From the NCBI GenBank assembly GCA_937921305.1, contig CAKZSU010000005.1, positions 74,740 through 138,739 on the forward strand: a stretch of DNA of 64,000 nt, written 5' to 3'. Positions 4,835 to 63,026 of this stretch are shown here, piece after piece. The stretch is from an uncultured Patescibacteria group bacterium. GTDB lineage: Bacteria; Patescibacteriota; Microgenomatia; UBA10105; UBA927. A model generated the notes under the pieces. It searched no databases and had not been told where the DNA came from. It saw only the letters and a list, made by a program, of their open reading frames with translations. The position numbers were made by a program, and so were the translations under genes. Position 1 is the stretch's first letter. Each line of letters begins with the position of its first letter.

Positions 4835-5685
4835 TACTGCGTATTTTTCAACTATTCAACCGATTTCAGCGTCCACATAGAGGGATAAAGGGTAGGCATG
4901 AACCGTTGTTGACGAAACGACAAGAATTCGTCTTGATAAGTTTTGCGTTGGGAATAGGTTTAATGATTACTCAATTGCTTCCAGAATATCGGTATCCAAT
5001 GGTGATTGTTCTTTCTATCGCTGCATATTTTGGAAGTGCCTTTGCGTTGCGAAAAGATCTGTCTGGAGTAGAGTTTTTTACGCTATTGATCCTCCCCACG
5101 TTATTCACCGCCGCGGTGACGCTGTTCTACTTTTTGCTTCCACTCCGTTGGATTACGCGGATTCCCGTGTTGGCATTGTACACGCTTGGGATGTACGCGT
5201 TGCTTCTCACGGAAAATATCTACAATGTCTCGGCAAATCGGACAATTCCATTACTTCGCGCCGCGCATACCATCGGGTTTTTAATTACATTGGTCACTTA
5301 TTTTTTGTTGGTTTCAACGGTTTTAGCGTTTCGATTGCACGCGATCCCAAACGCGATTCTTATTGGCGCGATTAGCGCTGTGTTGATTCTTCAGATTCTT
5401 TGGTCTATTGATCTGGAAACAGATCGGATTCAACCCAAAATTTTTCATCTCACTTCCACATTAACACTTATTTTTATGGAGCTTGCGTGGGTATTGTCTT
5501 TCCTCTCTGTGAAGTCGACGATGAAAGCGTTGTTTTTGACAACCTGTTTTTACAGCCTTGTTGGTATAGCGCAACAATATCTTGCGGAGCGCTTGTATAA
5601 GAAAACCGTTATAGAATTTTCAAGTGTTCTTATTATTGTTGGCATTGTATTCCTTTTTGCGATGAATTGGCGAGGAAATTTTTAG
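4831..5685 (+). CDS. polytopic integral membrane protein, hypothetical
   Basis: ATGA overlap with the yebC-like stop. At least 6 hydrophobic segments. No recognised family. The true start may be further downstream. Confidence 0.5.
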   Translation: MILRIFQLFNRFQRPHRGIKGRHEPLLTKRQEFVLISFALGIGLMITQLLPEYRYPMVIVLSIAAYFGSAFALRKDLSGVEFFTLLILPTLFTAAVTLFYFLLPLRWITRIPVLALYTLGMYALLLTENIYNVSANRTIPLLRAAHTIGFLITLVTYFLLVSTVLAFRLHAIPNAILIGAISAVLILQILWSIDLETDRIQPKIFHLTSTLTLIFMELAWVLSFLSVKSTMKALFLTTCFYSLVGIAQQYLAERLYKKTVIEFSSVLIIVGIVFLFAMNWRGNF

Positions 5686-5943
5686 ATAGATTTGAGGTAG
5701 GAGAGAGGACAAAGTGATATATTCTGATACAGTTATATTATAGGCCTATAAAAATGTGGATAAGTTTTCACGATATCCTATAAAAGTTTTCACGAATTGC
5801 ATACATAATCCTCATTTGATGTAGGCAGTGTTTGTATTTGATAGTAAAGAATGAAAGAAACGATGATAGAGAGATGTGTGTTGTCATGTTTGCTCGTTTC
5901 AGTATTTAGAAACACTTAGGAAAGGTGCTCTTTTCTTTAAAGT

Positions 5944-5977
5944 TCTTCAGATGTTTAACTACGTTCAGGATAACAAT
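5944..5977. repeat. copy of the dispersed CTTCAG..TTCAGGATAACA hairpin repeat family
   Basis: ttcttcagatgtttaactacgttcaggataaca; same core as copies at 6.2-6.5 kb, 8.2 kb, 13.7 kb, 16.3 kb, 36.3 kb and 62.9 kb. Confidence 0.5.
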
Positions 5978-6197
5978 GTGTACTTGCATACTAAAAAGAA
6001 GTTGCCAAGCATTGTCAAATGGTTTTGTTTTCTGCTAGGTTTACGAAATGATTGGTGGATTGTTTTAAAAACTAGCTTCAAAAGTTTATTTTTGGATTGT
6101 TAAATCAATCTAAAACTAATTTTTTGTGAAGGTGGAGAAATATATAACATAAAAAAACCGAACAAGTGTTTTTTTATGTTATTTTTCTCTTTGTCGC

Positions 6198-6507
6198 CCT
6201 GAACTCGTTCGAAGATCTGAAAGCTTGCGAAGAAATCAATACCACATCATTGCAAAATGTTGAAATAATTTCAGTATAAAATAAGGGATGTATTGCACTC
6301 TTTGACCCTTCTTCTTAATTCTGAACTCTCAATTCAGGATCCGAAGACTTGCGAAGAAACCAATACCATATCATTGCAATGAACTACATTCAGCATGATA
6401 AGAGCGTATCGTCCTGAACATGGTTCAGAATCTGGGGAGTCTCGAGGAAGGGAACGCTCTTTTTATTAGATACTGAAACACGTTCGGCATGACATAAAAT
6501 GTGTATC
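6198..6507. repeat. cluster of at least five CTGAA-loop-TTCAG hairpin repeats (followed by GATCC/CATGATA/CATGACA), interleaved with a ~45-bp direct repeat
   Basis: cctgaactcgttcgaagatctgaaag (6198-6223); ctgaactctcaattcaggatcc (6321-6342); acattcagcatgataagagcg (6386-6406); cctgaacatggttcagaatc (6413-6432); ctgaaacacgttcggcatgacataa (6483-6507). Confidence 0.6.
6214..6381. repeat. two copies of a ~45-bp direct repeat (6214-6259 and 6338-6381, ~90% identical)
   Basis: gatctgaaagcttgcgaagaaatcaataccacatcattgcaaaatg versus gatccgaagacttgcgaagaaaccaataccatatcattgcaatg. Confidence 0.7.
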
Positions 6508-6946
6508 ACAAGTTAGGAAGGGAAACGTACTCCATAATGTCGCACAATAATACTTTTACGACGTTTAAGATGAAAAAAGCGAGAGTGGACGCTTTCGTAT
6601 GATTCTTGTTGCCATTGTTTTTTTTGCCGTTTTTCCACATTTCTGGTTTTGCTTCTTGTATGGAGATTCCGGGGTAAATAATACCTTCTCTTGCGTGTTC
6701 ATCCCATATTTTGTGGCAATCAGCGCATAATCCGACGCCGTTCACGCGTTCATCAGATCCACCCATTCCTTGCGGAATAATGTGATGAATTTGCGTTTTG
6801 CATTTTTTCCCACATGCAGCACAACATCCATTCTGTTCTTGACGTATTTGATCTTTTATTTCACGAGAAAAGGCAAGGCGGGATAATTCCCATACAGTAA
6901 GAATCGTTATTCCCAAGGCAATTGGCTTTTTTAGTATTTCCTTCAT
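6506..6946 (-). CDS. HNH endonuclease domain protein
   Basis: CCAACGKKCKTQIHHIIPQGMGGSDERVNGVGLCADCH is a canonical HNH motif (Cys pairs plus HH...N...H). N-terminal hydrophobic segment. The 3' tail runs through the att-like motif at 6545-6563, so the true C-terminus is uncertain. Confidence 0.7.
   Translation of the reverse strand: MKEILKKPIALGITILTVWELSRLAFSREIKDQIRQEQNGCCAACGKKCKTQIHHIIPQGMGGSDERVNGVGLCADCHKIWDEHAREGIIYPGISIQEAKPEMWKNGKKNNGNKNHTKASTLAFFILNVVKVLLCDIMEYVSLPNL
6545..6563. repeat. left copy of the 16-bp direct repeat ATAATGTCGCACAATA (att/dif-like core)
   Basis: cATAATGTCGCACAATAATAc; identical 16-mer at 8371-8386; degenerate copies at 8451-8467, 62923-62937 and nt 7-20. Confidence 0.6.
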
Positions 6947-7290
6947 TTATTTTTCATTTGCGATTTTCGAATCGCAAAGACTGTAAGATAGTCTTCTTCG
7001 TGATCGGGGTGATATCGATGTGGGTCAAGACGATGCATTTCCATTTCAAGTCTATGTTTTGTTAATTCTGCGTATTTTCTGCATTGGAAGCATCCGCAAG
7101 TTTTCGCTCTATGTTTAGCTTCTTCACATTCCTTCCAAAGGTCTAAAAAAACTTTTTCTTCCACATCTTGAACGAATCTATTTGCTTGTTCAAGAATTGA
7201 TTGATCAATTTCTTTTGACATAGATAGATGGTTTGAATATTGAGAAGAACTATATATCGCAATATGCTGAAATGCAAGAGCTAAATTCAT
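6943..7290 (-). CDS. small hypothetical Cys/His-rich protein, apparently co-transcribed with the HNH gene
   Basis: ATGA overlap with the HNH ORF. CGCFQC motif and His-rich C-terminal region (HRLEMEMHRLDPHRYHPDHEED). No recognised family. Confidence 0.45.
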   Translation of the reverse strand: MNLALAFQHIAIYSSSQYSNHLSMSKEIDQSILEQANRFVQDVEEKVFLDLWKECEEAKHRAKTCGCFQCRKYAELTKHRLEMEMHRLDPHRYHPDHEEDYLTVFAIRKSQMKNK

Positions 7291-7296
7291 GAAGAG

Positions 7297-8191
7297 TGAA
7301 GTTGCAAGGAATCGATCATGCGCTTTGCAATAGTGTAATTTTCGGCATGTCTGCCATTTGGCTCAACAAGGATATAGACATCATTTCGATCTTTAAACAT
7401 TCTGAGCAACTCTTTCATTTCCTGTCTATTGGGGACAGCTTGATTCGTTTGACACAGTGGATTATCAAGATGATCATGAAAATCTGTACCATTATATGGC
7501 GGAATAATGTATCCAAGATTAAGAATCTTCGTCTGATGAAAGAGTTTTTTTGTTATCTGGACGACTGTTGACCATACAAGCGAGCGTTGAGTTGTCCGGA
7601 TTGTACACGCGGTGTGACCGAAGTCGTTTGCAACGGAGAATCCTTGTTGGTATTTTCGAGATTAAAAATATTGAATGGATTGTCTCGTTTATTCGGGCTA
7701 TACCAGTCATTTGTATCTCGCGATGGGATCGTTTCGATGGCAAGAATAATATTTCGCTCGTTGGCATATTCCGTGAGAATCGTGAGATTTTCAAGAAATA
7801 TCTCTTGGGCTTTTTCTTCGGGGATTGGTTCTCCTGCTGGAACGAATCGCTGTTCGTCAAGGTAAATTTTCACTGGGATACGGGTGCTTGGGTGAAATAC
7901 GACATACTGAAAGCCGTGAATGTATGCGGTATCAATCGTTTCTTTGAGTTGCGCCATTGATGGTTCAACGATAGCGTTGTTTGGAAGCGCAATGTTCGTC
8001 CATGTATGATCTGGAAGATGTCCCCAAAAATGTAAGCCAACCTTCATGTTCCGTCGTTTTAGTTCTTGAAAAAGATTGTTATATTGATCTTTTCTTAAAA
8101 TGTTGAACCATATTTCGGCGAATGGCGGGTTTGCTTTTGCAAGATCGTCAAAACTGTCTTTTTGCGGTCCAACTTTAATTCCAAGAATCAT
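7297..8191 (-). pseudogene. xylose-isomerase-like TIM-barrel (sugar phosphate isomerase/epimerase family) gene, interrupted by a frameshift at ~7645-7660
   Basis: ORF 7553-8191 carries family-like motifs (ILGIKVGP, VVFHPS, LAIETIP, NLEN) and then ends in junk-like sequence. The adjacent frame (7661-7297) is open and continues with ANDFGHTAC..DVYILVEPNGRHAENYTIAKRMIDSL. Adding 1 nt in the A-run at ~7651-7656 joins both into one ~300-aa protein. Confidence 0.5.
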
Positions 8192-8240
8192 AGAATGGTT
8201 TGTTTATTATAGCTTATTGGAATGATTGCTTGTTTGCTTG

Positions 8241-8300
8241 TTATTCAGACACGCTCAGGATGACACGTTGTTGTCACGCTGAATTCATTTCAGGATATAG
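8241..8300. repeat. two copies of the TCAG..CTCAGGATGACA / CTGAA..TTCAGGATA hairpin repeat
   Basis: ttattcagacacgctcaggatgacacg and gctgaattcatttcaggatatag. Confidence 0.55.
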
Positions 8301-8364
8301 AATCGGTTGAAAAGATTTTGTTTATCCGTAATTCTCCAGATATGGAAGAACCATCTTTTTAGTT

Positions 8365-8392
8365 TTTATAATAATGTCGCACAATATTATTC
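8365..8392. other. candidate dif/att-like site: 27-28 bp imperfect palindrome with ~11-bp AT-rich arms around a CGCAC core, containing the right copy of the ATAATGTCGCACAATA repeat
   Basis: tttATAATAATGTCGCACAATATTATtc lies 110 bp upstream of the xerC-like start. Its reverse complement matches itself at 21 of 27 positions. It also contains a perfect TATAAT. Confidence 0.45.
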
Positions 8393-8450
8393 TTCTCTAT
8401 CTATGATTTTTTCTTTTAGTTATATATCGTCGAAAACGATCATACTCTTC

Positions 8451-8467
8451 TTTAATGTCGCACATTC
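8451..8467. promoter_or_regulatory. third, degenerate copy of the TAATGTCGCACA motif, 35 bp upstream of the xerC-like start (possible operator/promoter element)
   Basis: tttAATGTCGCACAttc, followed by TTGATT and TGATAAAT promoter-like hexamers. Confidence 0.35.
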
Positions 8468-8501
8468 TTGATTTTGCTCGTCATGTGTGTCATCATGATA
8501 A

Positions 8502-9449
8502 ATGCATATGACCACATCTTCCCTTACGCTTGATGATCTTGTCCGTCAATTTTTAGAACATCTTGAGATTGAACGAAATGTTTCTCGATTAACGATTCGG
8601 AACTACGCCCATTATCTTCAACGATTTTTGACATTTCTTGGAGATCATCCCTCTATTGATGACATTACCTTTGAAAAAGTTCGGTTGTATCGTCTGTATT
8701 TGTCTCGATATGTTGACGAACACGGGTGCTCGTTGAAGCGGGTGACACAGAATTATCATCTTATCGCGCTTCGTTCGTTTTTGAAGTACTTGATGAAGCG
8801 AGATGTTCCATCGCTTGCTCCAGAAAAAATAGAACTTGCGAAGGCGGAAAGTCGAAGTCTTTTGTACTTGGATCGAGAGCAAATAGAGCGTTTGCTTGCG
8901 TCGCCGAGTATTAGCACAGAGGAAGGGTTACGAGATAAAGCGATTCTTGAGACATTATTTTCCACTGGTCTTCGCGTTTCGGAGTTGGTGTCGTTAAATC
9001 GAGATCACATTAATGTTGAACGAAAAGAATTTGGCGTAATTGGAAAAGGAAGAAAACCTCGCGTTGTGTTCCTTTCTGATCGCGCCGCGGAGTGGATCCA
9101 GCGATATCTTGCAAGCAGAACCGATGAGACGATTCCGTTGTTTATACGATATAGCGGTCCATTGCCGAAAGAACGCGATCCGAAGGGAGAGTCTCTCCGT
9201 CTATCCGCGCGAAGCGTCCAGCGGATTGTCGAGAAATATGTGAAAAAAGCGAAAGTCTCAAAAAAAATTACCCCCCATGGACTTCGTCACAGTTTCGCGA
9301 CAGATTTGCTTTCCGCCGGCGCAGATCTTCGGTCGATTCAGGAAATGCTTGGACATAAAAATGTTTCAACAACGCAGATTTATACTCACATTACGAATAC
9401 ACAGCTTCGCGAAGTGCATAAAAAGTTTCATGAACGACAGACTGCTTAA
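8502..9449 (+). CDS. xerC: tyrosine site-specific recombinase, XerC/XerD family
   Basis: C-terminal catalytic region HGLRHSFATDLLSAGADLRSIQEMLGHKNVSTTQIYTH (R..H..R..Y) and N-terminal core-binding domain; 315 aa. Confidence 0.85.
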   Translation: MHMTTSSLTLDDLVRQFLEHLEIERNVSRLTIRNYAHYLQRFLTFLGDHPSIDDITFEKVRLYRLYLSRYVDEHGCSLKRVTQNYHLIALRSFLKYLMKRDVPSLAPEKIELAKAESRSLLYLDREQIERLLASPSISTEEGLRDKAILETLFSTGLRVSELVSLNRDHINVERKEFGVIGKGRKPRVVFLSDRAAEWIQRYLASRTDETIPLFIRYSGPLPKERDPKGESLRLSARSVQRIVEKYVKKAKVSKKITPHGLRHSFATDLLSAGADLRSIQEMLGHKNVSTTQIYTHITNTQLREVHKKFHERQTA

Positions 9450-10189
9450 CGAATTTCGTAGCTGATCGTTACGGTTACCGTTACTTCTTGAGAGCCCGGT
9501 TCGATCGATGTTGGCGCATCTTTTTCCGTTATAGCGCTTCTTATCATTGGCATCGGATAGAATGGCGGATTTCCGGTGTTCTCGCTATAGTTAATGACTC
9601 TTCCCAGCTGAAATCCCGCGATTTTTGCCGCTTGTTGGGCTTTTTTGAATGCGTCTTGAAACGCCTTTTGCCTTGCTTCATCTTCTGCTTTTGATCGATC
9701 AGCGATATCAAAATTTATTCCTCCAATAGTATTTGCGCCTTGCGCGGTCGCGATGTCAATGACTTCATTGATCTTGTCCATGTCTCGGACTTTGACGAGA
9801 ATCGTCGCGTTTGCGTTGTATCCAGTTATCTTTTGAAATCTATCCATATAATCATAATTTGGATAGATGCTGTAGTTAGTTGTTTGTATATCCTTCTCAT
9901 CAATGTCGAGTTTTTTTATAGCGTCAGACACTGCGTTTATCTTTTTATTAAGATCGTTTTGTGTTTGTTTTGCTGTAGCTCCTTGCGTTTGAACGCCAAG
10001 GTTCGTGATCGCAATGTCGGGGACAACCGTAACTTTTCCTTCTCCTGTGACAGAGAATGTATCGGTTTTTTGCGTGACCACGGAGGATACAGAAAGCGGC
10101 AACGGATCCGCGAATTTAGTATACAGATACAGCATAGCGAAAAATATGATTGGCCATAGGAGTGTTGCCGGAATGTGTTTATTGTTCAT
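9446..10189 (-). CDS. SIMPL-domain (DUF541) secreted/membrane-anchored protein
   Basis: Signal/TM segment PATLLWPIIFFAMLYLY. DUF541-like core (...GANTIGGINFDIADRSKAEDEARQKAFQDAFKKAQQAAKIAGFQLG). Start taken at MNNKH; an upstream ATG at 10249 also exists. Confidence 0.7.
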   Translation of the reverse strand: MNNKHIPATLLWPIIFFAMLYLYTKFADPLPLSVSSVVTQKTDTFSVTGEGKVTVVPDIAITNLGVQTQGATAKQTQNDLNKKINAVSDAIKKLDIDEKDIQTTNYSIYPNYDYMDRFQKITGYNANATILVKVRDMDKINEVIDIATAQGANTIGGINFDIADRSKAEDEARQKAFQDAFKKAQQAAKIAGFQLGRVINYSENTGNPPFYPMPMIRSAITEKDAPTSIEPGSQEVTVTVTISYEIR

Positions 10190-13639: not shown

Positions 13640-13740
13640 TCTCAGGATGTAAAAACCTTATAAAAAGGTCTCTGCTTGCAACTCATCATGTCTTGAATCA
13701 TGTTCAAGATGACAGAGAGACGCATCAGGATGGCTATCAT
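13640..13740. repeat. three copies of the hairpin/GATGACA repeat family between gyrA and ppa
   Basis: tctcaggatgtaaaaac; tcttgaatcatgttcaagatgacagag; catcaggatggctatcatg. Confidence 0.5.
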
Positions 13741-16290: not shown

Positions 16291-16450
16291 TGTCATCCTG
16301 AACTCTCTCTGTCATCCTGAATTTGGTTCAGGATCTTGGGTATTAGATGATGAGCTGTAAAGTGGCAAATATTTTTAGAATCTCTGCTAGATGCTGAAAC
16401 GAGTTCAGCATGATAATGGATGAATCCTAAGATGCGTCCGGTATGACAAT
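16291..16450. repeat. cluster of hairpin repeats (TGTCATCCTGAA x2, TCCTGAA-TTTGG-TTCAGGA, GCTGAAACGAGTTCAGCATGATA, GGTATGACA) between gyrB and pilC
   Basis: tgtcatcctgaactctctctgtcatcctgaatttggttcaggatcttggg. The 24-mer tgctgaaacgagttcagcatgata is identical to 62869-62892. Confidence 0.6.
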
Positions 16451-36387: not shown

Positions 36388-38301
36388 TTAATCATTTGCA
36401 ACCGGTTCACGAACAGAATTGTTGAATTGGATATTGAAGCGGTTCACGATGCTGCGAATGAGATCTTCTCGGATTGGTCGCGTTTCTTCTGTCGAGATCG
36501 ATTTTGTTCGCTCTTGATACACAACGCGGAACGTCCGCTTGTTTTCATACGCGTCAAGAAGCGTCGCGTCCACGAGAAGCGGATGAAACGATCGAATCAT
36601 TTCGAGGATGTCTCCTGTTTTTGTGTCTGGATTCACAAGAAATGAGATATCTTCAATGATTGGCGGATGCGGAGGCGCGATGATATAAGGCTTTACTTCC
36701 GCTTTTTTTGCCACAAGAAGTTCATCAAGCGAATATTCGACAGCAAAGATTGTTGATTCGATTTGTTGAATGCGCGTGGTGTCCATTTGAATTCCAAGGT
36801 ATTCTGAAAACGCTTCAATGGTGCCCTTGAGATCAAAGTAAGAAATCGGCCGCGGCGTTTTTCCGTAGGATCGAGTGTCTATGACGCCAGTCATCACGAT
36901 GCCAAGCCGTCGTTCTTCTGTGTATGTGCCATTGTTGTTGAAAAATACGTTTCCAAGTTCAAAAATTGCAACCCGTTCCATTCGTTCATTGAGTAATCGT
37001 TTGGCGTAGTTGATGAGGTTTGGTATAAGCGAAGGGCGAAGCGTTGCCATTGCGGGGTCTGGCGGATTTTCGAGGTGAATCGTTGACGGATCATGTATCG
37101 TGGGAACGAATGATGAGGTAATTACCTCATTGAGGTGAAGCTTCACAAGAATGTCTCGAATGTCATCTTCTTGTTTTATGCGTGGTGATGTTTGTTCCGG
37201 CGGAATTTCTCCATTGAGTAGCATTGGGTGGATTGCTTCGTATCCATGAATGCGAAGTATCTCTTCAACGAGATCTGCCGATCCTTCGATATCTGTTCGA
37301 AAGGTCGGAACAGTGACAAGAAACCGATTAGATTCTGAGTGGACAGAACATCCGAGGCGTTCCAAGATTTCTCTTTGGGTAGATGGCGGAATAGCAAGTC
37401 CGCTGAGCCGTTCTGTTTCTGTTATTGGAAGGTCTATGCTTGGTGCAGTCTTTGGCGTTGGATAATAGTCTACGACATTCGATGTCGCTTCGGCGTTTGC
37501 GTGGCGTTTGAGGAGGAAGAGCGCTCGAGCCAGAGCAAATGATGTCTCATGTGGATCGAGATGTTTTTCAAGTCTTGTTCCCGCTTCTGTTCGAATACCA
37601 AGTCGCCTGCTTGTTCGTCGAACACTTGCATAGTTATAGACTGCGGCTTCAAGCAAAATTTCTTTTGTTATTTTTGTCGTTCCTGATGTTCTGCTTCCTA
37701 CAAGGGTGATTGCTTGAGGAGACTGTTCGTCAGCAAGCGTGAGATCTTCCGTGGAAAGTGTGATGGTTTCTCCCATGAATGTTGTCATTTGTTCTTTGTC
37801 TTTTGCTCTCCTGACAACAAGGTGGTTGCCTTGAAGCGCGTGCAGATCAAACGCATGAATCGGGATGCCGGTTTCAATCATGACATAATTTGTGATATCC
37901 ACCACATTATTAATCGATGTCATGCCATATAACGCGAGGCGTTTTGCAAGCCATTCTGGCGACGGTCCAACGCGGACAGTTGCAGTAAAGGCGGTAAACC
38001 GATGGACAAGATCCGGGGCTTCAACGGTAATAAGTGTTGATTTCGGATCTCCATTCGGTAACAACTCAACTTCTGGAAGACGAATCGGCGTGTTCCACGC
38101 CGTGCCTATGTCTCTTGCGATACCAATCAATCCAAAGAGATCTGCCCTGTTTCCTCGCAATTCTAAGTCAATGACGGTTTCTCCATTGGTATTAATCGTT
38201 TTATCGAGCATATGCCCGATCATTGTGAGTCGATGCGTGAACTCATGAAAATCCGATGGCAGACTGACATAGTCAGAGAGCCATGAGAGCGGCACATTCA
38301 T
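36388..38301 (-). CDS. pheT: phenylalanyl-tRNA synthetase beta subunit
   Basis: MNVPLSWLSDYV N-terminus, B3/4 and B5 domains, 637 aa (compact form). Confidence 0.9.
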   Translation of the reverse strand: MNVPLSWLSDYVSLPSDFHEFTHRLTMIGHMLDKTINTNGETVIDLELRGNRADLFGLIGIARDIGTAWNTPIRLPEVELLPNGDPKSTLITVEAPDLVHRFTAFTATVRVGPSPEWLAKRLALYGMTSINNVVDITNYVMIETGIPIHAFDLHALQGNHLVVRRAKDKEQMTTFMGETITLSTEDLTLADEQSPQAITLVGSRTSGTTKITKEILLEAAVYNYASVRRTSRRLGIRTEAGTRLEKHLDPHETSFALARALFLLKRHANAEATSNVVDYYPTPKTAPSIDLPITETERLSGLAIPPSTQREILERLGCSVHSESNRFLVTVPTFRTDIEGSADLVEEILRIHGYEAIHPMLLNGEIPPEQTSPRIKQEDDIRDILVKLHLNEVITSSFVPTIHDPSTIHLENPPDPAMATLRPSLIPNLINYAKRLLNERMERVAIFELGNVFFNNNGTYTEERRLGIVMTGVIDTRSYGKTPRPISYFDLKGTIEAFSEYLGIQMDTTRIQQIESTIFAVEYSLDELLVAKKAEVKPYIIAPPHPPIIEDISFLVNPDTKTGDILEMIRSFHPLLVDATLLDAYENKRTFRVVYQERTKSISTEETRPIREDLIRSIVNRFNIQFNNSVREPVAND

Positions 38302-46887: not shown

Positions 46888-49134
46888 TTATGCTTGATTT
46901 TTTTGTGTCATCTTTTTAAGAATGAATAGAATTATACCAATTGGTATGAGAAAAATCAACCACGCGAGGTTGATTCGCACGACGCGTTTTCCCGCTACGA
47001 TTGGCGTTATCGTTGCTTCCGGTGCGTCGATCGTTGAAAATCCATTGATTTCGGCGTTTTCTTCTTCCATAATTATGGTGTTTGAATGTAGCGCTTCTCC
47101 ATTCGTTGTGCTTCTCGATGCTCGTTGAACGGTAGATCGACGCGTTAAGCGAATGATTCCATCAGGCAATTTTTCTTGCGATGATGTAGTTGTGACAGAT
47201 GCGATTGTGGTAGTATTTGTATTGTTTGAACTTTGCGATGAAGAATCAACTGTGATTGAGACAGTTGCGTTTGTTCCTCCGAGAGCGAGAGATTGCTCTT
47301 GCGTCTGATTCTCGGTAATCGTTTGAGTTTGTTTCTTGTGCCCTGGAGCGATAAAGTCTCCAATCCAGCTTCCGAATACATTGACAACCGTGACAAAGAG
47401 TCTTCCTGTCCCCGTAATATTGTTGTTCACAAAATTTACCATGTTGGCGATAATGTTCGCGTCTCCGGTAACGATGGATGAATTTCCTCCGGTGTTGTTG
47501 TTTGCTTGGTTTGTTCCTGTATTAGCTGAAAGATTCAGTGTATTTTTAACAACTGCAGTGTTTGTCTGTGTTGTTGTTTGATTTGATTCATTATCTATTG
47601 TTGTGGTGTTTATTGAATTTGCGCTGTTTCCTGTCGTTGCGATAATGTTGCCGTGTTCGTCAGTGGCGACAAGAAATCCTTCGGATCCAGCGATGTTCGA
47701 TCCATTTCCTCCAATAATTCTTCCTATCCATTTTCCGGCTTCATTTATGATAACGAGCCAAAAGTTTCCATCAGTGATGTTGCTGTTTGCAATATTTACA
47801 ACATTCGCGTCGATGTTTGCGTTTCCTGTGATTACTCTATTATCTCCACTTGTGTTTCCTGTGGTTTCATTGTTTCCAGTTTGGGCATTGAGAATTAATG
47901 TATTTTCTATGATGGCGTCGTTTGATTGGATTGTCGTATCGGTTGTCGATGTGTTGATAGCTGTTGTATTGGTTGAGTTCGCTCCATTATTTGCGGTGCT
48001 GATCGCAAGAGGTTGTTCTTCGCAACACGGTGCCATCATGAGATATTCTTCTGGAAAAATGATATCTCCTACGAGATTTCCATAAATATTGACAACGCCG
48101 TATAGCACATTTCCTTGAATGTTATTGTTTGCAAATGTCAGTAGGTTCGCCGATACATTTGCGTTTCCTGTATAAATGACACTTTCTCCACCTGTGTTTT
48201 CGCTTGACATGTTGTTTCCAGAATTTGCCGAAAGGGTTAGTGTGTTTCCAATAGTCGCGTCATTATTTTGGAATGTCGTGTCGTTTGAACTGTTTGTTAT
48301 GGTTGTGATGTTTGTCGAGTCTACGCCGTTTCCGTGTGTTTGACCTATTGTTCCACCTTGATTACATCCAGAGACGCATGAAGGAGCGAATTGAAGAACA
48401 ATATCTCCTCGATGATCATCGGCAACGGTAAATTCAGAGACCATCACGCCGTCGACATTGGTGTTCATAGAAGTTATAACCGTGCCTGACACATTGGCGT
48501 TTCCTGTTTTAATGAAGCTATTACTGACATTTCCTGATGCGCTGTTATTTCCTGTCGTTGTTGATTGATTGAGGTCGGTATTAACTGCTGCTGTATTATC
48601 TTGGATCATTGCTGATGATGGTTGATTATTTATTAATGTCGTGTTTTTTGAGTCTGCGTCGTTTCCTGTGGTTGCGATAGATCCTGAATAATGTTCATTG
48701 CTTTGTGTTCCAGCGTATTGATTCGAATTTCCTGTTGTTATGACGATCGATTCACCTGTCGCATCTCCGGTGATAATTCTTGTCTCTCCATTTTGCTGAG
48801 ATGGTTGTGTATTTGTTGGTTGAGATTGATTGTTTTGTTGCGTTGATTGCGTTGAAGAATCTTGCGACGGTGTTGGTTCTGGTGACGATGAGCGATCTTG
48901 TCTGCGTTCTCTGGGTGTCGGCGTTGGTTCTGGTGTTGGAGAGGCATCTGATAGGGTTGGCGTTGATGGGGCGTTTGGCGCTGTTGGCGACGATGGCGAT
49001 TGCGGAGGTGTTGGAGGTTCTGGGGAAGCTGGAGCAGTCGGTGCCGATGGGGGTGTTGGAAATTCTTGCGCTCCTACTGGAAGTTGTCCAAGAAATAATG
49101 CGATGACAAGAATACTTGTAATGATTTTTTTCAT
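46888..49134 (-). CDS. large cell-surface protein: Pro-rich N-terminal linker, four ~95-100 aa Asn/Thr/Gly repeats, C-terminal TM anchor
   Basis: Signal peptide MKKIITSILVIALFLGQLPVGAQE. PTPPSAPTAPASPEPPTPP linker. Repeats TxNxTxxxQxNxAxVxNTLxLxAxTGxNxAxxNTGGxSxIxTGxANxxAN with Cys pairs (SCVSGC, PCCEEQ). C-terminal LAWLIFLIPIGIILFILKK. Confidence 0.65.
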   Translation of the reverse strand: MKKIITSILVIALFLGQLPVGAQEFPTPPSAPTAPASPEPPTPPQSPSSPTAPNAPSTPTLSDASPTPEPTPTPRERRQDRSSSPEPTPSQDSSTQSTQQNNQSQPTNTQPSQQNGETRIITGDATGESIVITTGNSNQYAGTQSNEHYSGSIATTGNDADSKNTTLINNQPSSAMIQDNTAAVNTDLNQSTTTGNNSASGNVSNSFIKTGNANVSGTVITSMNTNVDGVMVSEFTVADDHRGDIVLQFAPSCVSGCNQGGTIGQTHGNGVDSTNITTITNSSNDTTFQNNDATIGNTLTLSANSGNNMSSENTGGESVIYTGNANVSANLLTFANNNIQGNVLYGVVNIYGNLVGDIIFPEEYLMMAPCCEEQPLAISTANNGANSTNTTAINTSTTDTTIQSNDAIIENTLILNAQTGNNETTGNTSGDNRVITGNANIDANVVNIANSNITDGNFWLVIINEAGKWIGRIIGGNGSNIAGSEGFLVATDEHGNIIATTGNSANSINTTTIDNESNQTTTQTNTAVVKNTLNLSANTGTNQANNNTGGNSSIVTGDANIIANMVNFVNNNITGTGRLFVTVVNVFGSWIGDFIAPGHKKQTQTITENQTQEQSLALGGTNATVSITVDSSSQSSNNTNTTTIASVTTTSSQEKLPDGIIRLTRRSTVQRASRSTTNGEALHSNTIIMEEENAEINGFSTIDAPEATITPIVAGKRVVRINLAWLIFLIPIGIILFILKKMTQKNQA

Positions 49135-52427: not shown

Positions 52428-52576
52428 ATATCGAATTATCTTAGAGGATGATTGCGATGAAGGCAAGTGGTCGAAGTTTAAACAAGATAAGACATCAAGA
52501 CAAGATCTTGCAAGAAGATGCTAAACCGAGTTTAGCATGACAGACGGTAAGCTTCATGGTGTAAAATTATCTTTCT

Positions 52577-62868: not shown

Positions 62869-62894
62869 TCTTTGTCGTGCTGAAACGAGTTCAG
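62869..62894. repeat. copy of the hairpin repeat, identical 24-mer to 16393-16416
   Basis: tgctgaaacgagttcagcatgatacg. Confidence 0.6.
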
Positions 62895-63026
62895 CATGAT
62901 ACGAAATGAGGTTTTAGAATGATAAAAGAATGTCGTACAAGTAACTATGCATAAAATACTCATGATAATAGATAAATGTCTGGACAATTCTAAAAAAAGC
63001 TCGTAACATACAATTAAAGAAATCAT

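Follow-up and report, generated by a model that had tools for sequence, protein, structure and literature searches.

The classical repetitive extragenic palindromes (REPs) carry a GTAG tag and, according to the text of the survey by Di Nocera et al. 2013 (PMC3733652), are moved by REP-associated tyrosine transposases (RAYTs). The same text describes a second superfamily by its CGTC tag, which is often TGTC and may also be CCTC, by stems of 8-9 bp nearly always starting with an A-T and a T-A pair, by loops of 4-5 nt and by a 3-nt tail. These CGTC-tagged REPs are mostly found as inverted dimers, heterodimers prevailing in the family CGTC-2, and their distribution among species is patchy; the survey argues that many REPs are transcribed and lie downstream of open reading frames (ORFs). 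As far as that text goes, no transposase is flanked by CGTC repeats, and the five phyla covered include no member of the candidate phyla radiation (CPR). It equates CGTC-1 with dRS3 of Neisseria, and CGTC-1 and CGTC-4 with the Rickettsia palindromic elements RPE-6 and RPE-4. In Neisseria, dRS3 is part of the 28-nt NTS element. A small single-domain GIY-YIG nuclease, SsnA, binds this element and cuts it in single-stranded form, the upstream tag being crucial, and ssn genes across bacteria are usually flanked by such hairpins (PMC11893778). Here we analysed a 64,000-nt stretch of contig CAKZSU010000005.1 from an uncultured Patescibacteria group bacterium (hereafter the window, meaning this whole stretch), and we assign the short hairpins dispersed between its genes, with a probability of about 0.8, to the family CGTC-2 of these REPs, in a CPR host.

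The repeat unit consists of [T/C]GTC, ATSCTGAA, a 5-nt loop, TTCAGSAT and C, corresponding to an unpaired 5′ tag, an 8-bp stem beginning with AT, the loop and a short tail. It is strand-asymmetric, and its 8-bp stem and 5-nt loop fit the geometry of CGTC-2. This reading is on the strand opposite to that of a preliminary description of the region, in which GATGACA or CATGATA was taken for a tail following the hairpin; these letters turn out to be the 5′ tag of the opposite-strand unit (TGTCATC.../TATCATG...). The preliminary description also knew of no described element with this consensus, which no longer holds: the anatomy is that of CGTC-2 REPs (PMC3733652), and the Neisseria member of the superfamily, dRS3/NTS, has a partner enzyme (PMC11893778). 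The GTAG tag that REPs or REPINs display together with RAYTs is absent, its place being taken by [T/C]GTC. An intragenic CGTC-2 unit of Sulfurovum encodes RHSELVSGS (supplementary table, PMC3733652), and this matches the peptide encoded by CGTCATTCTGAACTTGTTTCAGGATC according to our own back-translation.

The motif is clearly above chance in the window. CTGAA-N(3-7)-TTCAG has seven matches in the window against 0.45 expected, a count reached by none of 100 dinucleotide-preserving shuffles, and the 12-mer TTCAGSATGAYA, with at most one mismatch, is found 15 times where 1.76 are expected and no shuffle has more than 5. One exact match of the pattern, at 47526-47538, was set aside as a chance match, being inside a gene and without tag. 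As an approach independent of the window, 185,579 species genomes were scanned for CTGAANNNNNTTCAGSATGAYA, yielding at least 120 loci, and 91 distinct foreign units were aligned using only GTCA...YGAA.....TTCR as anchors. R1, the covariance model derived from these 91 foreign units, finds eight matches in the window at E<0.01, all of them in the non-coding part, which makes up about 9% of a window that is about 91% ORF-covered; the claim that copies are intergenic is thereby borne out. Weaker matches at 6405-6437(+) and 6318-6341(+) are intergenic as well, and the units occupy seven separate intergenic regions. Window copies score 22-44 bits, versus mostly 40-51 bits for copies in other genomes, and RNA folding gives good values for four of ten window units (-8.7 to -10 kcal/mol), the others ranging from -2 to -7.6 kcal/mol. 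Rfam reports only a tRNA over the whole window at the gathering threshold and sub-threshold noise over 5600-6600 at an E-value threshold, with no known RNA family found there, and an exact-sequence literature search retrieved only unrelated eukaryotic primers.

The units of other genomes define the hairpin more sharply. Of 205 units, 168 have T and 28 have C immediately before GTC, and the stem is followed by C-T-N in 143 and by C-C-N in 33 of them, where the published consensus is CCA. In 180 of the 205 anchored units the 5′ and 3′ triplets of the stem pair completely, although the scan pattern left the 3′ one free. Across the 91 aligned units, stem cells are paired at 98%; shuffles give 88%, and sliding the partner gives 19-47%. 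The stem pair 7-27 is AU in 89 of the 91; at 8-26, 78 units have UA and nine have CG. Covariation is observed at four pairs (UA/CG, CG/GC/UA, UA/CG, and C-G/U-A at the loop base). The hairpin is kept by compensatory changes across genomes. Loops of 5 nt such as CTTGT, TTTAT and CTCGT are found elsewhere, and TTTGG, CTCGT and CTCGG in the window. Loop bases 1 and 4 co-vary (C-G in 57/91, U-A in 26/91; alignment A2, columns 15 and 18), implying a ninth pair that leaves a 2-nt loop and one bulged base, a sterically odd arrangement for a free hairpin; this co-variation may reflect recognition by a protein.

The copies in the window, with scores from the covariance model in bits and folding energies, are the following:

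5945-5975 (-): degenerate single unit, TGTTATCCTGAA CGTAG TTAAACAT, with TTCAGGATAACA at one mismatch
6192-6400: tandem pair of inverted dimers with a 124-bp period, 6192-6218(+), ~6257-6284(-), 6318-6341(+) and ~6372-6400(-), all degenerate
6405-6437 (+): degenerate unit with tag ATC, 15.7 bits, E=0.12; pairs with 6464-6496 as third inverted dimer of the cluster
6464-6496 (-): unit with eroded stem, 10 nt past the stop codon of the HNH gene, 28.4 bits, -2 kcal/mol
8243-8302: half-unit 8243-8265(-) and unit 8270-8302(+) with tags inward, 24.8 bits at 8270-8302, motif at 8254 and 8272
13684-13716 (-): unit with CTTGAA/TTCAAG stem, 34 nt past the ppa stop codon, 26.2 bits
16285-16465: block of four units, ~181 bp, made of 16426-16450(-), degenerate, 16385-16417(-), 16308-16340(+) and half-unit 16291-16302(+)
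16308-16340 (+): best-preserved unit, TGTC tag, stem ATCCTGAA/TTCAGGAT, loop TTTGG, 43.6 bits, E=1.8e-8, -10 kcal/mol
16385-16417 (-): unit with TATC tag, stem ATGCTGAA/TTCAGCAT, loop CTCGT, 36.6 bits, -8.7 kcal/mol, z=-3.5; 46 nt past the pilC stop codon
36322-36354 (-): unit with eroded 3′ arm, 34 nt past the stop of the gene at 36388-38301, 26.9 bits, -2.6 kcal/mol
52512-52544 (-): unit with a compensatory stem change, stem ATGCTAAA/TTTAGCAT, CTAAA/TTTAG, 35.6 bits, -8.7 kcal/mol, z=-5.0; between divergent genes
62869-62901 (-): unit with TATC tag, stem ATGCTGAA/TTCAGCAC, loop CTCGT, 22.1 bits over 62878-62896, -8.8 kcal/mol; between divergent genes

These copies are intergenic and occur singly, as inverted heterodimers and as a BIME-like cluster (bacterial interspersed mosaic element). 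An inverted heterodimer with tags outward is formed by 16308-16340(+), whose stem is CC-type, and 16385-16417(-), whose stem is GC-type. The region 6192-6496 consists of three inverted dimers in a BIME-like arrangement, the tandem copies of 6192-6400 forming a direct repeat (D1) of 42 nt with 88% identity and a spacing of 124; the model scores 6318-6341 at 13.9 bits and 6257-6277 at 8.7 bits, and TTCAGCATGATA is exact at 6389-6400. Half-unit remnants surround the unit 13684-13716, at 13641-13652 and 13722-13733. The proposed presence of at least six units within 5944-6507 stands only in part: two show an exact CTGAA-N-TTCAG, while the other four or five are degenerate, one reaching E<0.01, two lying at E 0.1-0.35 and the rest being half-units. 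Recurrence in at least six other regions had also been proposed; all five that were listed are confirmed, and a sixth, at 52512-52544, had been missed because of its compensatory CTAAA/TTTAG.

The positions of the units relative to genes agree with what had been noticed before. Four lie 10-46 nt past stop codons and are all oriented in the sense direction of the preceding gene, and three lie between divergent gene starts, so that units do occur both after and before genes. Most copies indeed lack a T-tract: the stems are A+T-rich, no T-run was found after the units, and a terminator scan does not report them. The best units carry a TGTC tag. The combination of a TATC tag, a GC-type stem and a CTCGT loop is common to three copies (16385, 62869 and ~6372-6400), which suggests copying within the genome. 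Erosion of the stem and mutation of the tag affect most copies, so that the best interpretation of them is as remnants of an earlier burst.

The cluster occupies part of an 820-bp gap (5686-6505) that separates a DUF5656 gene from the gene of a small HNH endonuclease; the only ORF in this gap, of 75 amino acids, is doubtful. In the unit-free left part of this spacer, a direct repeat AAGTTTTCACGA is present twice at 5762-5795, 22 bp apart, each time after CCTATAAAA. A 23-nt inverted repeat with A/T runs at 6136-6190 resembles a bidirectional terminator.

Comparison with related genomes gives a view of how the units reached their present sites. Named GyrB homologues place the host in Patescibacteria, near Candidatus Gottesmanbacteria, and the two relatives compared, L126 and L127 (GyrB identity 86-90%), keep the order pilB-pilT-pilC-gyrB-ppa-gyrA. 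The pilC-gyrB spacer measures 246 bp here versus 71-78 bp in both relatives, the surplus of about 181 bp being the four-unit block (alignment A4). Likewise, about 120 surplus bp in the ppa-gyrA spacer, including the unit 13684-13716, are absent from L127 (alignment A5). In 40 kb of the relatives, the covariance model finds nothing at E<=0.01, the sole match up to E=1 having 12 bits (E=0.65). The 181-bp block is bounded by inverted TGTCAT...ATGACA ends, and no target-site duplication was found at its borders when these were set against the empty sites of the relatives. Presence of unit blocks here and their absence at the same sites in relatives fit insertion or recent spread in this lineage. 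Five further assemblies of the same organism are near-identical over the 820-bp spacer, with one variable position (G in the window and L004, A in L001, L002, L003 and L005), and are for that reason uninformative for covariation or mobility. In a third relative (L130, 84% GyrB identity), the pilC-gyrB junction holds a 126-amino-acid ORF and a gene for a YibE_F protein (8439-9946), indicating that this junction is a recurrent insertion site in the lineage.

The distribution of the hairpin reaches far beyond this genome. Strong copies of the CTGAA type are present at nearly all of the at least 120 loci. Among the matches listed, the hosts span more than 12 phyla, with Alpha- and Gammaproteobacteria, Bacteroidota, Ignavibacteria, Spirochaetes, Elusimicrobiota, Nitrospirota and Melainabacteria, and further include many CPR classes and a DPANN-labelled metagenome-assembled genome of Nanoarchaeota. 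A near-identical 26-nt sequence is found from CPR bacteria to Proteobacteria, in the DPANN-labelled genome and in viral-classed contigs of 55-57% GC. Copies of other genomes make up 61 inverted pairs, mostly of mixed types, and in a Rickettsia endosymbiont (L050) CTGAA-type units stand beside RPE-4/RPE-6 elements. Two viral-classed contigs of 55-57% GC, IMGVR_UViG_3300028845_000195 (L249 and L227) and IMGVR_UViG_3300010223_000008 (L242 and L270), hold 10 and 8 near-perfect units; these are all on one strand, single, and with a conserved ATCTCGTC-like tail, unlike the inverted dimers of cellular genomes.

How might such units move? According to the mechanism that we consider, they would spread as selfish miniature DNA, and the enzyme recognizing the single-stranded DNA hairpin, via the tag and the base of the stem, would be a small Ssn-family nuclease with a single GIY-YIG domain. 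Recognition by an Ssn nuclease has been shown in Neisseria, with the sister hairpin NTS/dRS3 as target, and also for a Wolbachia variant. Its extension to the CTGAA-type hairpin seems reasonable in view of the shared anatomy and of one contig, IMGVR_UViG_3300045988_146177 (L326/L328). There, a gene for a 97-amino-acid single-domain GIY-YIG protein (550-843; Pfam E=3.8e-17) is followed within 40 bp by at least six CTGAA/CCGAA-type units (884-1060), and the 14-kb locus contains 14 matches of the covariance model at E<=0.1, that is 11 distinct units and three opposite-strand duplicates. Its product is 38% identical to a GIY-YIG protein of Mucilaginibacter (L079), whose 110-amino-acid gene has dimers of a sister hairpin, TGTCATTCTGAACGCAGTGAAGAATC, on either side. 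A protein search with the latter returned close relatives only. When metagenomes were scanned for the Bacteroidota-type clade of this Mucilaginibacter gene, 80 loci were obtained, 71 of them evaluable; hairpins with a GTCAY-N-C[TCG]GA 5′ half, which they share with our units as TGTCATSCTGA, were present on both sides of the gene in 56 of the 71, at 5.6/kb near the gene versus 0.41/kb away from it. The suggestion, made earlier, that the units could be a binding site for a protein is compatible with this picture, since Ssn nucleases bind and cut sister hairpins.

Several observations weigh against the CGTC-2 assignment and its Ssn mechanism. The hairpins at the 80 metagenomic GIY-YIG loci are of the sister type and none is of the CTGAA type; the L326 contig is the only case found of a CTGAA-type hairpin adjoining an Ssn-like gene, a single and one-sided one. 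The published Ssn-motif pattern, HGTCWYN(0-2)YYVSBRHN(0-5)WNVSBRGN(0-2)RNCYNB, matches the canonical NTS used as control and none of the 91 units, nor any site in the window. No GIY-YIG gene was detected in the window by regular expressions, tblastn, a hidden Markov model from 121 GIY-YIG proteins or Pfam on 42 small ORFs, and none was detected in the 9.4 kb and 8.5 kb beyond the window ends (82 kb in total), where there are no further units either. Around the at least 120 genomic copies, over about 0.85 Mb, no GIY-YIG gene adjoins a CTGAA-type unit and no gene family recurs; no ORF bracketed by units was found at these loci. As to the family, its choice is based on the text description of CGTC-2 in the survey and on one peptide. 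Lastly, the difference from the relatives may reflect loss from both of them and not gain here.

An RNA role for the hairpins is possible though unlikely. They would then be 3′-end elements, acting in termination or protecting mRNA from exonucleases and selected at gene ends, as the four sense-oriented units past stop codons, the folding energies of the intact ones (-8.7 to -10 kcal/mol) and the view of transcribed REPs taken by Di Nocera et al. would allow. Yet these units show no T-tract and escape the terminator scan, three of the eight lie between divergent starts, most gene-end copies fold at only -2 to -2.6 kcal/mol, the relatives do without units at the same gene ends, and the common orientation (4/4) has p ~0.06. 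Moreover, what is kept across phyla, including in contigs of 55-57% GC, is the sequence itself. Such a role leaves unexplained why the sequence is conserved, why the unit has a tag, why some copies are on the promoter side and why copies have decayed, although the few intact hairpins just past stop codons may incidentally serve as RNA 3′-end hairpins. Operator sites of a host transcription factor, forming a palindromic regulon, are a highly improbable alternative: palindromic intergenic sites, sometimes between divergent promoters, would be expected of them, but half of the copies follow a gene, tandem clusters and dimers with variable spacers are common arrangements, the tag is strand-asymmetric, and close relatives with the same genes have no copies. 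Neither a regulator gene co-occurring with the motif nor conserved positions of it ahead of orthologous genes are seen here. Compensatory substitutions here preserve a structure and not a recognition sequence, and a regulon would hardly extend over more than 12 phyla and viral contigs, among the matches listed.

It is improbable, too, that the units are ends or remnants of a conventional miniature inverted-repeat transposable element or insertion sequence, whether its transposase were of the DDE type or a Y1 enzyme of the RAYT/IS200 type. The inverted TGTCAT...ATGACA ends of the inserted block and the use of RAYTs by GTAG REPs are in keeping with it; against it are the missing target-site duplication, the lack of a recurrent neighbour family, a tag other than GTAG and the published CGTC repeats without flanking transposase, and no Y1/RAYT or other transposase appears among the listed Pfam families of the 42 small window ORFs or among the Pfam matches in the flanks, a check of limited sensitivity. 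That base composition or a single local duplication produced the whole pattern is hardly conceivable: a 124-bp tandem duplication does account for part of the 5944-6507 cluster, but shuffles never reach the observed counts, the units are spread over seven regions, and a model trained elsewhere finds them. A reading as DNA-uptake sequences was rejected, the unit being not species-specific and excluded from coding DNA. Tag, stem, loop, inverted dimers, clustering, intergenic position and presence or absence among relatives all fit a dispersed palindrome of the REP/BIME type, as the preliminary description had proposed, and we retain the assignment to CGTC-2 REPs.

Within the CGTC superfamily, it is doubtful, though worth considering, that the CTGAA-type (CGTC-2) hairpin forms a separate branch recognized by a dedicated, horizontally travelling enzyme, either from a distinct Ssn clade, such as the L326 protein, or of another kind. 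The idea comes from the fact that this hairpin escapes the Ssn-motif pattern and has no neighbouring nuclease or transposase at about 120 sites, as well as from the near-identity of the 26-nt sequence across hosts and from the 8-10 one-way copies in some viral-classed contigs. If it were true, the hairpin could act strand-specifically in phage genomes, either during replication or to evade defence.

The genes around the 5944-8302 clusters present some peculiarities of their own. The HNH endonuclease (gene 6506-6946, 146 amino acids), which was considered as a candidate partner enzyme of the hairpins, gives generic family matches and is an orphan, only itself and one 79%-identical fragment being found among 5.8 billion proteins. 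Its gene is preceded by a 115-amino-acid ORF without family, and together they cover 6506-7290(-), between REP clusters and in the lowest-GC part of the stretch; this segment may be an inserted cassette. The next gene, of the AP_endonuc_2 family (xylose-isomerase-like TIM barrel; 7311-8194(-)), is split by a frameshift near 7646-7649, its two frames each being 68-70% identical to an intact 302-amino-acid orthologue in L126. The units 8243-8302 lie between this disrupted gene and xerC/D. In L126 a gene for monogalactosyldiacylglycerol (MGDG) synthase separates xerC from the AP_endonuc_2 gene; it is missing in the window, where the junction holds the REP units. Three exact + strand copies of TAATGTCGCACA are found within 2 kb, at 6535-6546, 8372-8383 and 8453-8464, versus 0.29 expected. 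They are situated around the HNH/AP-endonuclease block and upstream of xerC/D, the first one inside the 3′ end of the HNH ORF, and are possibly a local operator or promoter element.

A known family of REPs is now placed in a CPR genome, in many more phyla than the five of 2013 and in viral-classed contigs. Since the published Ssn-motif pattern misses this abundant hairpin type, surveys of Ssn hairpins probably under-count it. CPR bacteria depend on taking up DNA, and in Neisseria transformation is modulated by relatives of these hairpins. If CPR had a working pair of Ssn nuclease and hairpin, this would be of interest; nothing here shows one.

Among the described systems, the Rickettsia elements RPE-4 and RPE-6 are longer and often in frame within genes, whereas the window copies are all intergenic. 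With the GTAG REPs, BIMEs and REPINs of E. coli and Pseudomonas, our units have in common a tagged hairpin of 20-35 nt, inverted doublets, clusters and an intergenic location, and they likely share the single-stranded DNA hairpin as active form, but the tag here is GTC and no RAYT (Y1 HUH) gene was seen in the window among the families checked; in the CGTC superfamily the partner enzyme, where known, is a GIY-YIG nuclease and not a RAYT. The Neisseria NTS/dRS3, whose enzyme gene typically has its own hairpins on its flanks, has in common with our units the CGTC/TGTC tag, the AT-initiated hairpin and the clustering around variable genes, and differs in stem and loop sequence, CTGAA-N5-TTCAG here being TTCCCGCG-N4-CGCGGGAA in Neisseria. 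Compared with CGTC-2, the host is a CPR bacterium, the tail is mostly CT/CC-N instead of CCA, three tags are TATC and most copies are decayed. The CGTC/TGTC tag, the 8-bp AT stem, the 5-nt loop, the presence of a short tail, the inverted heterodimers, the intergenic and patchy distribution and the lack of a detected flanking transposase are common to both.

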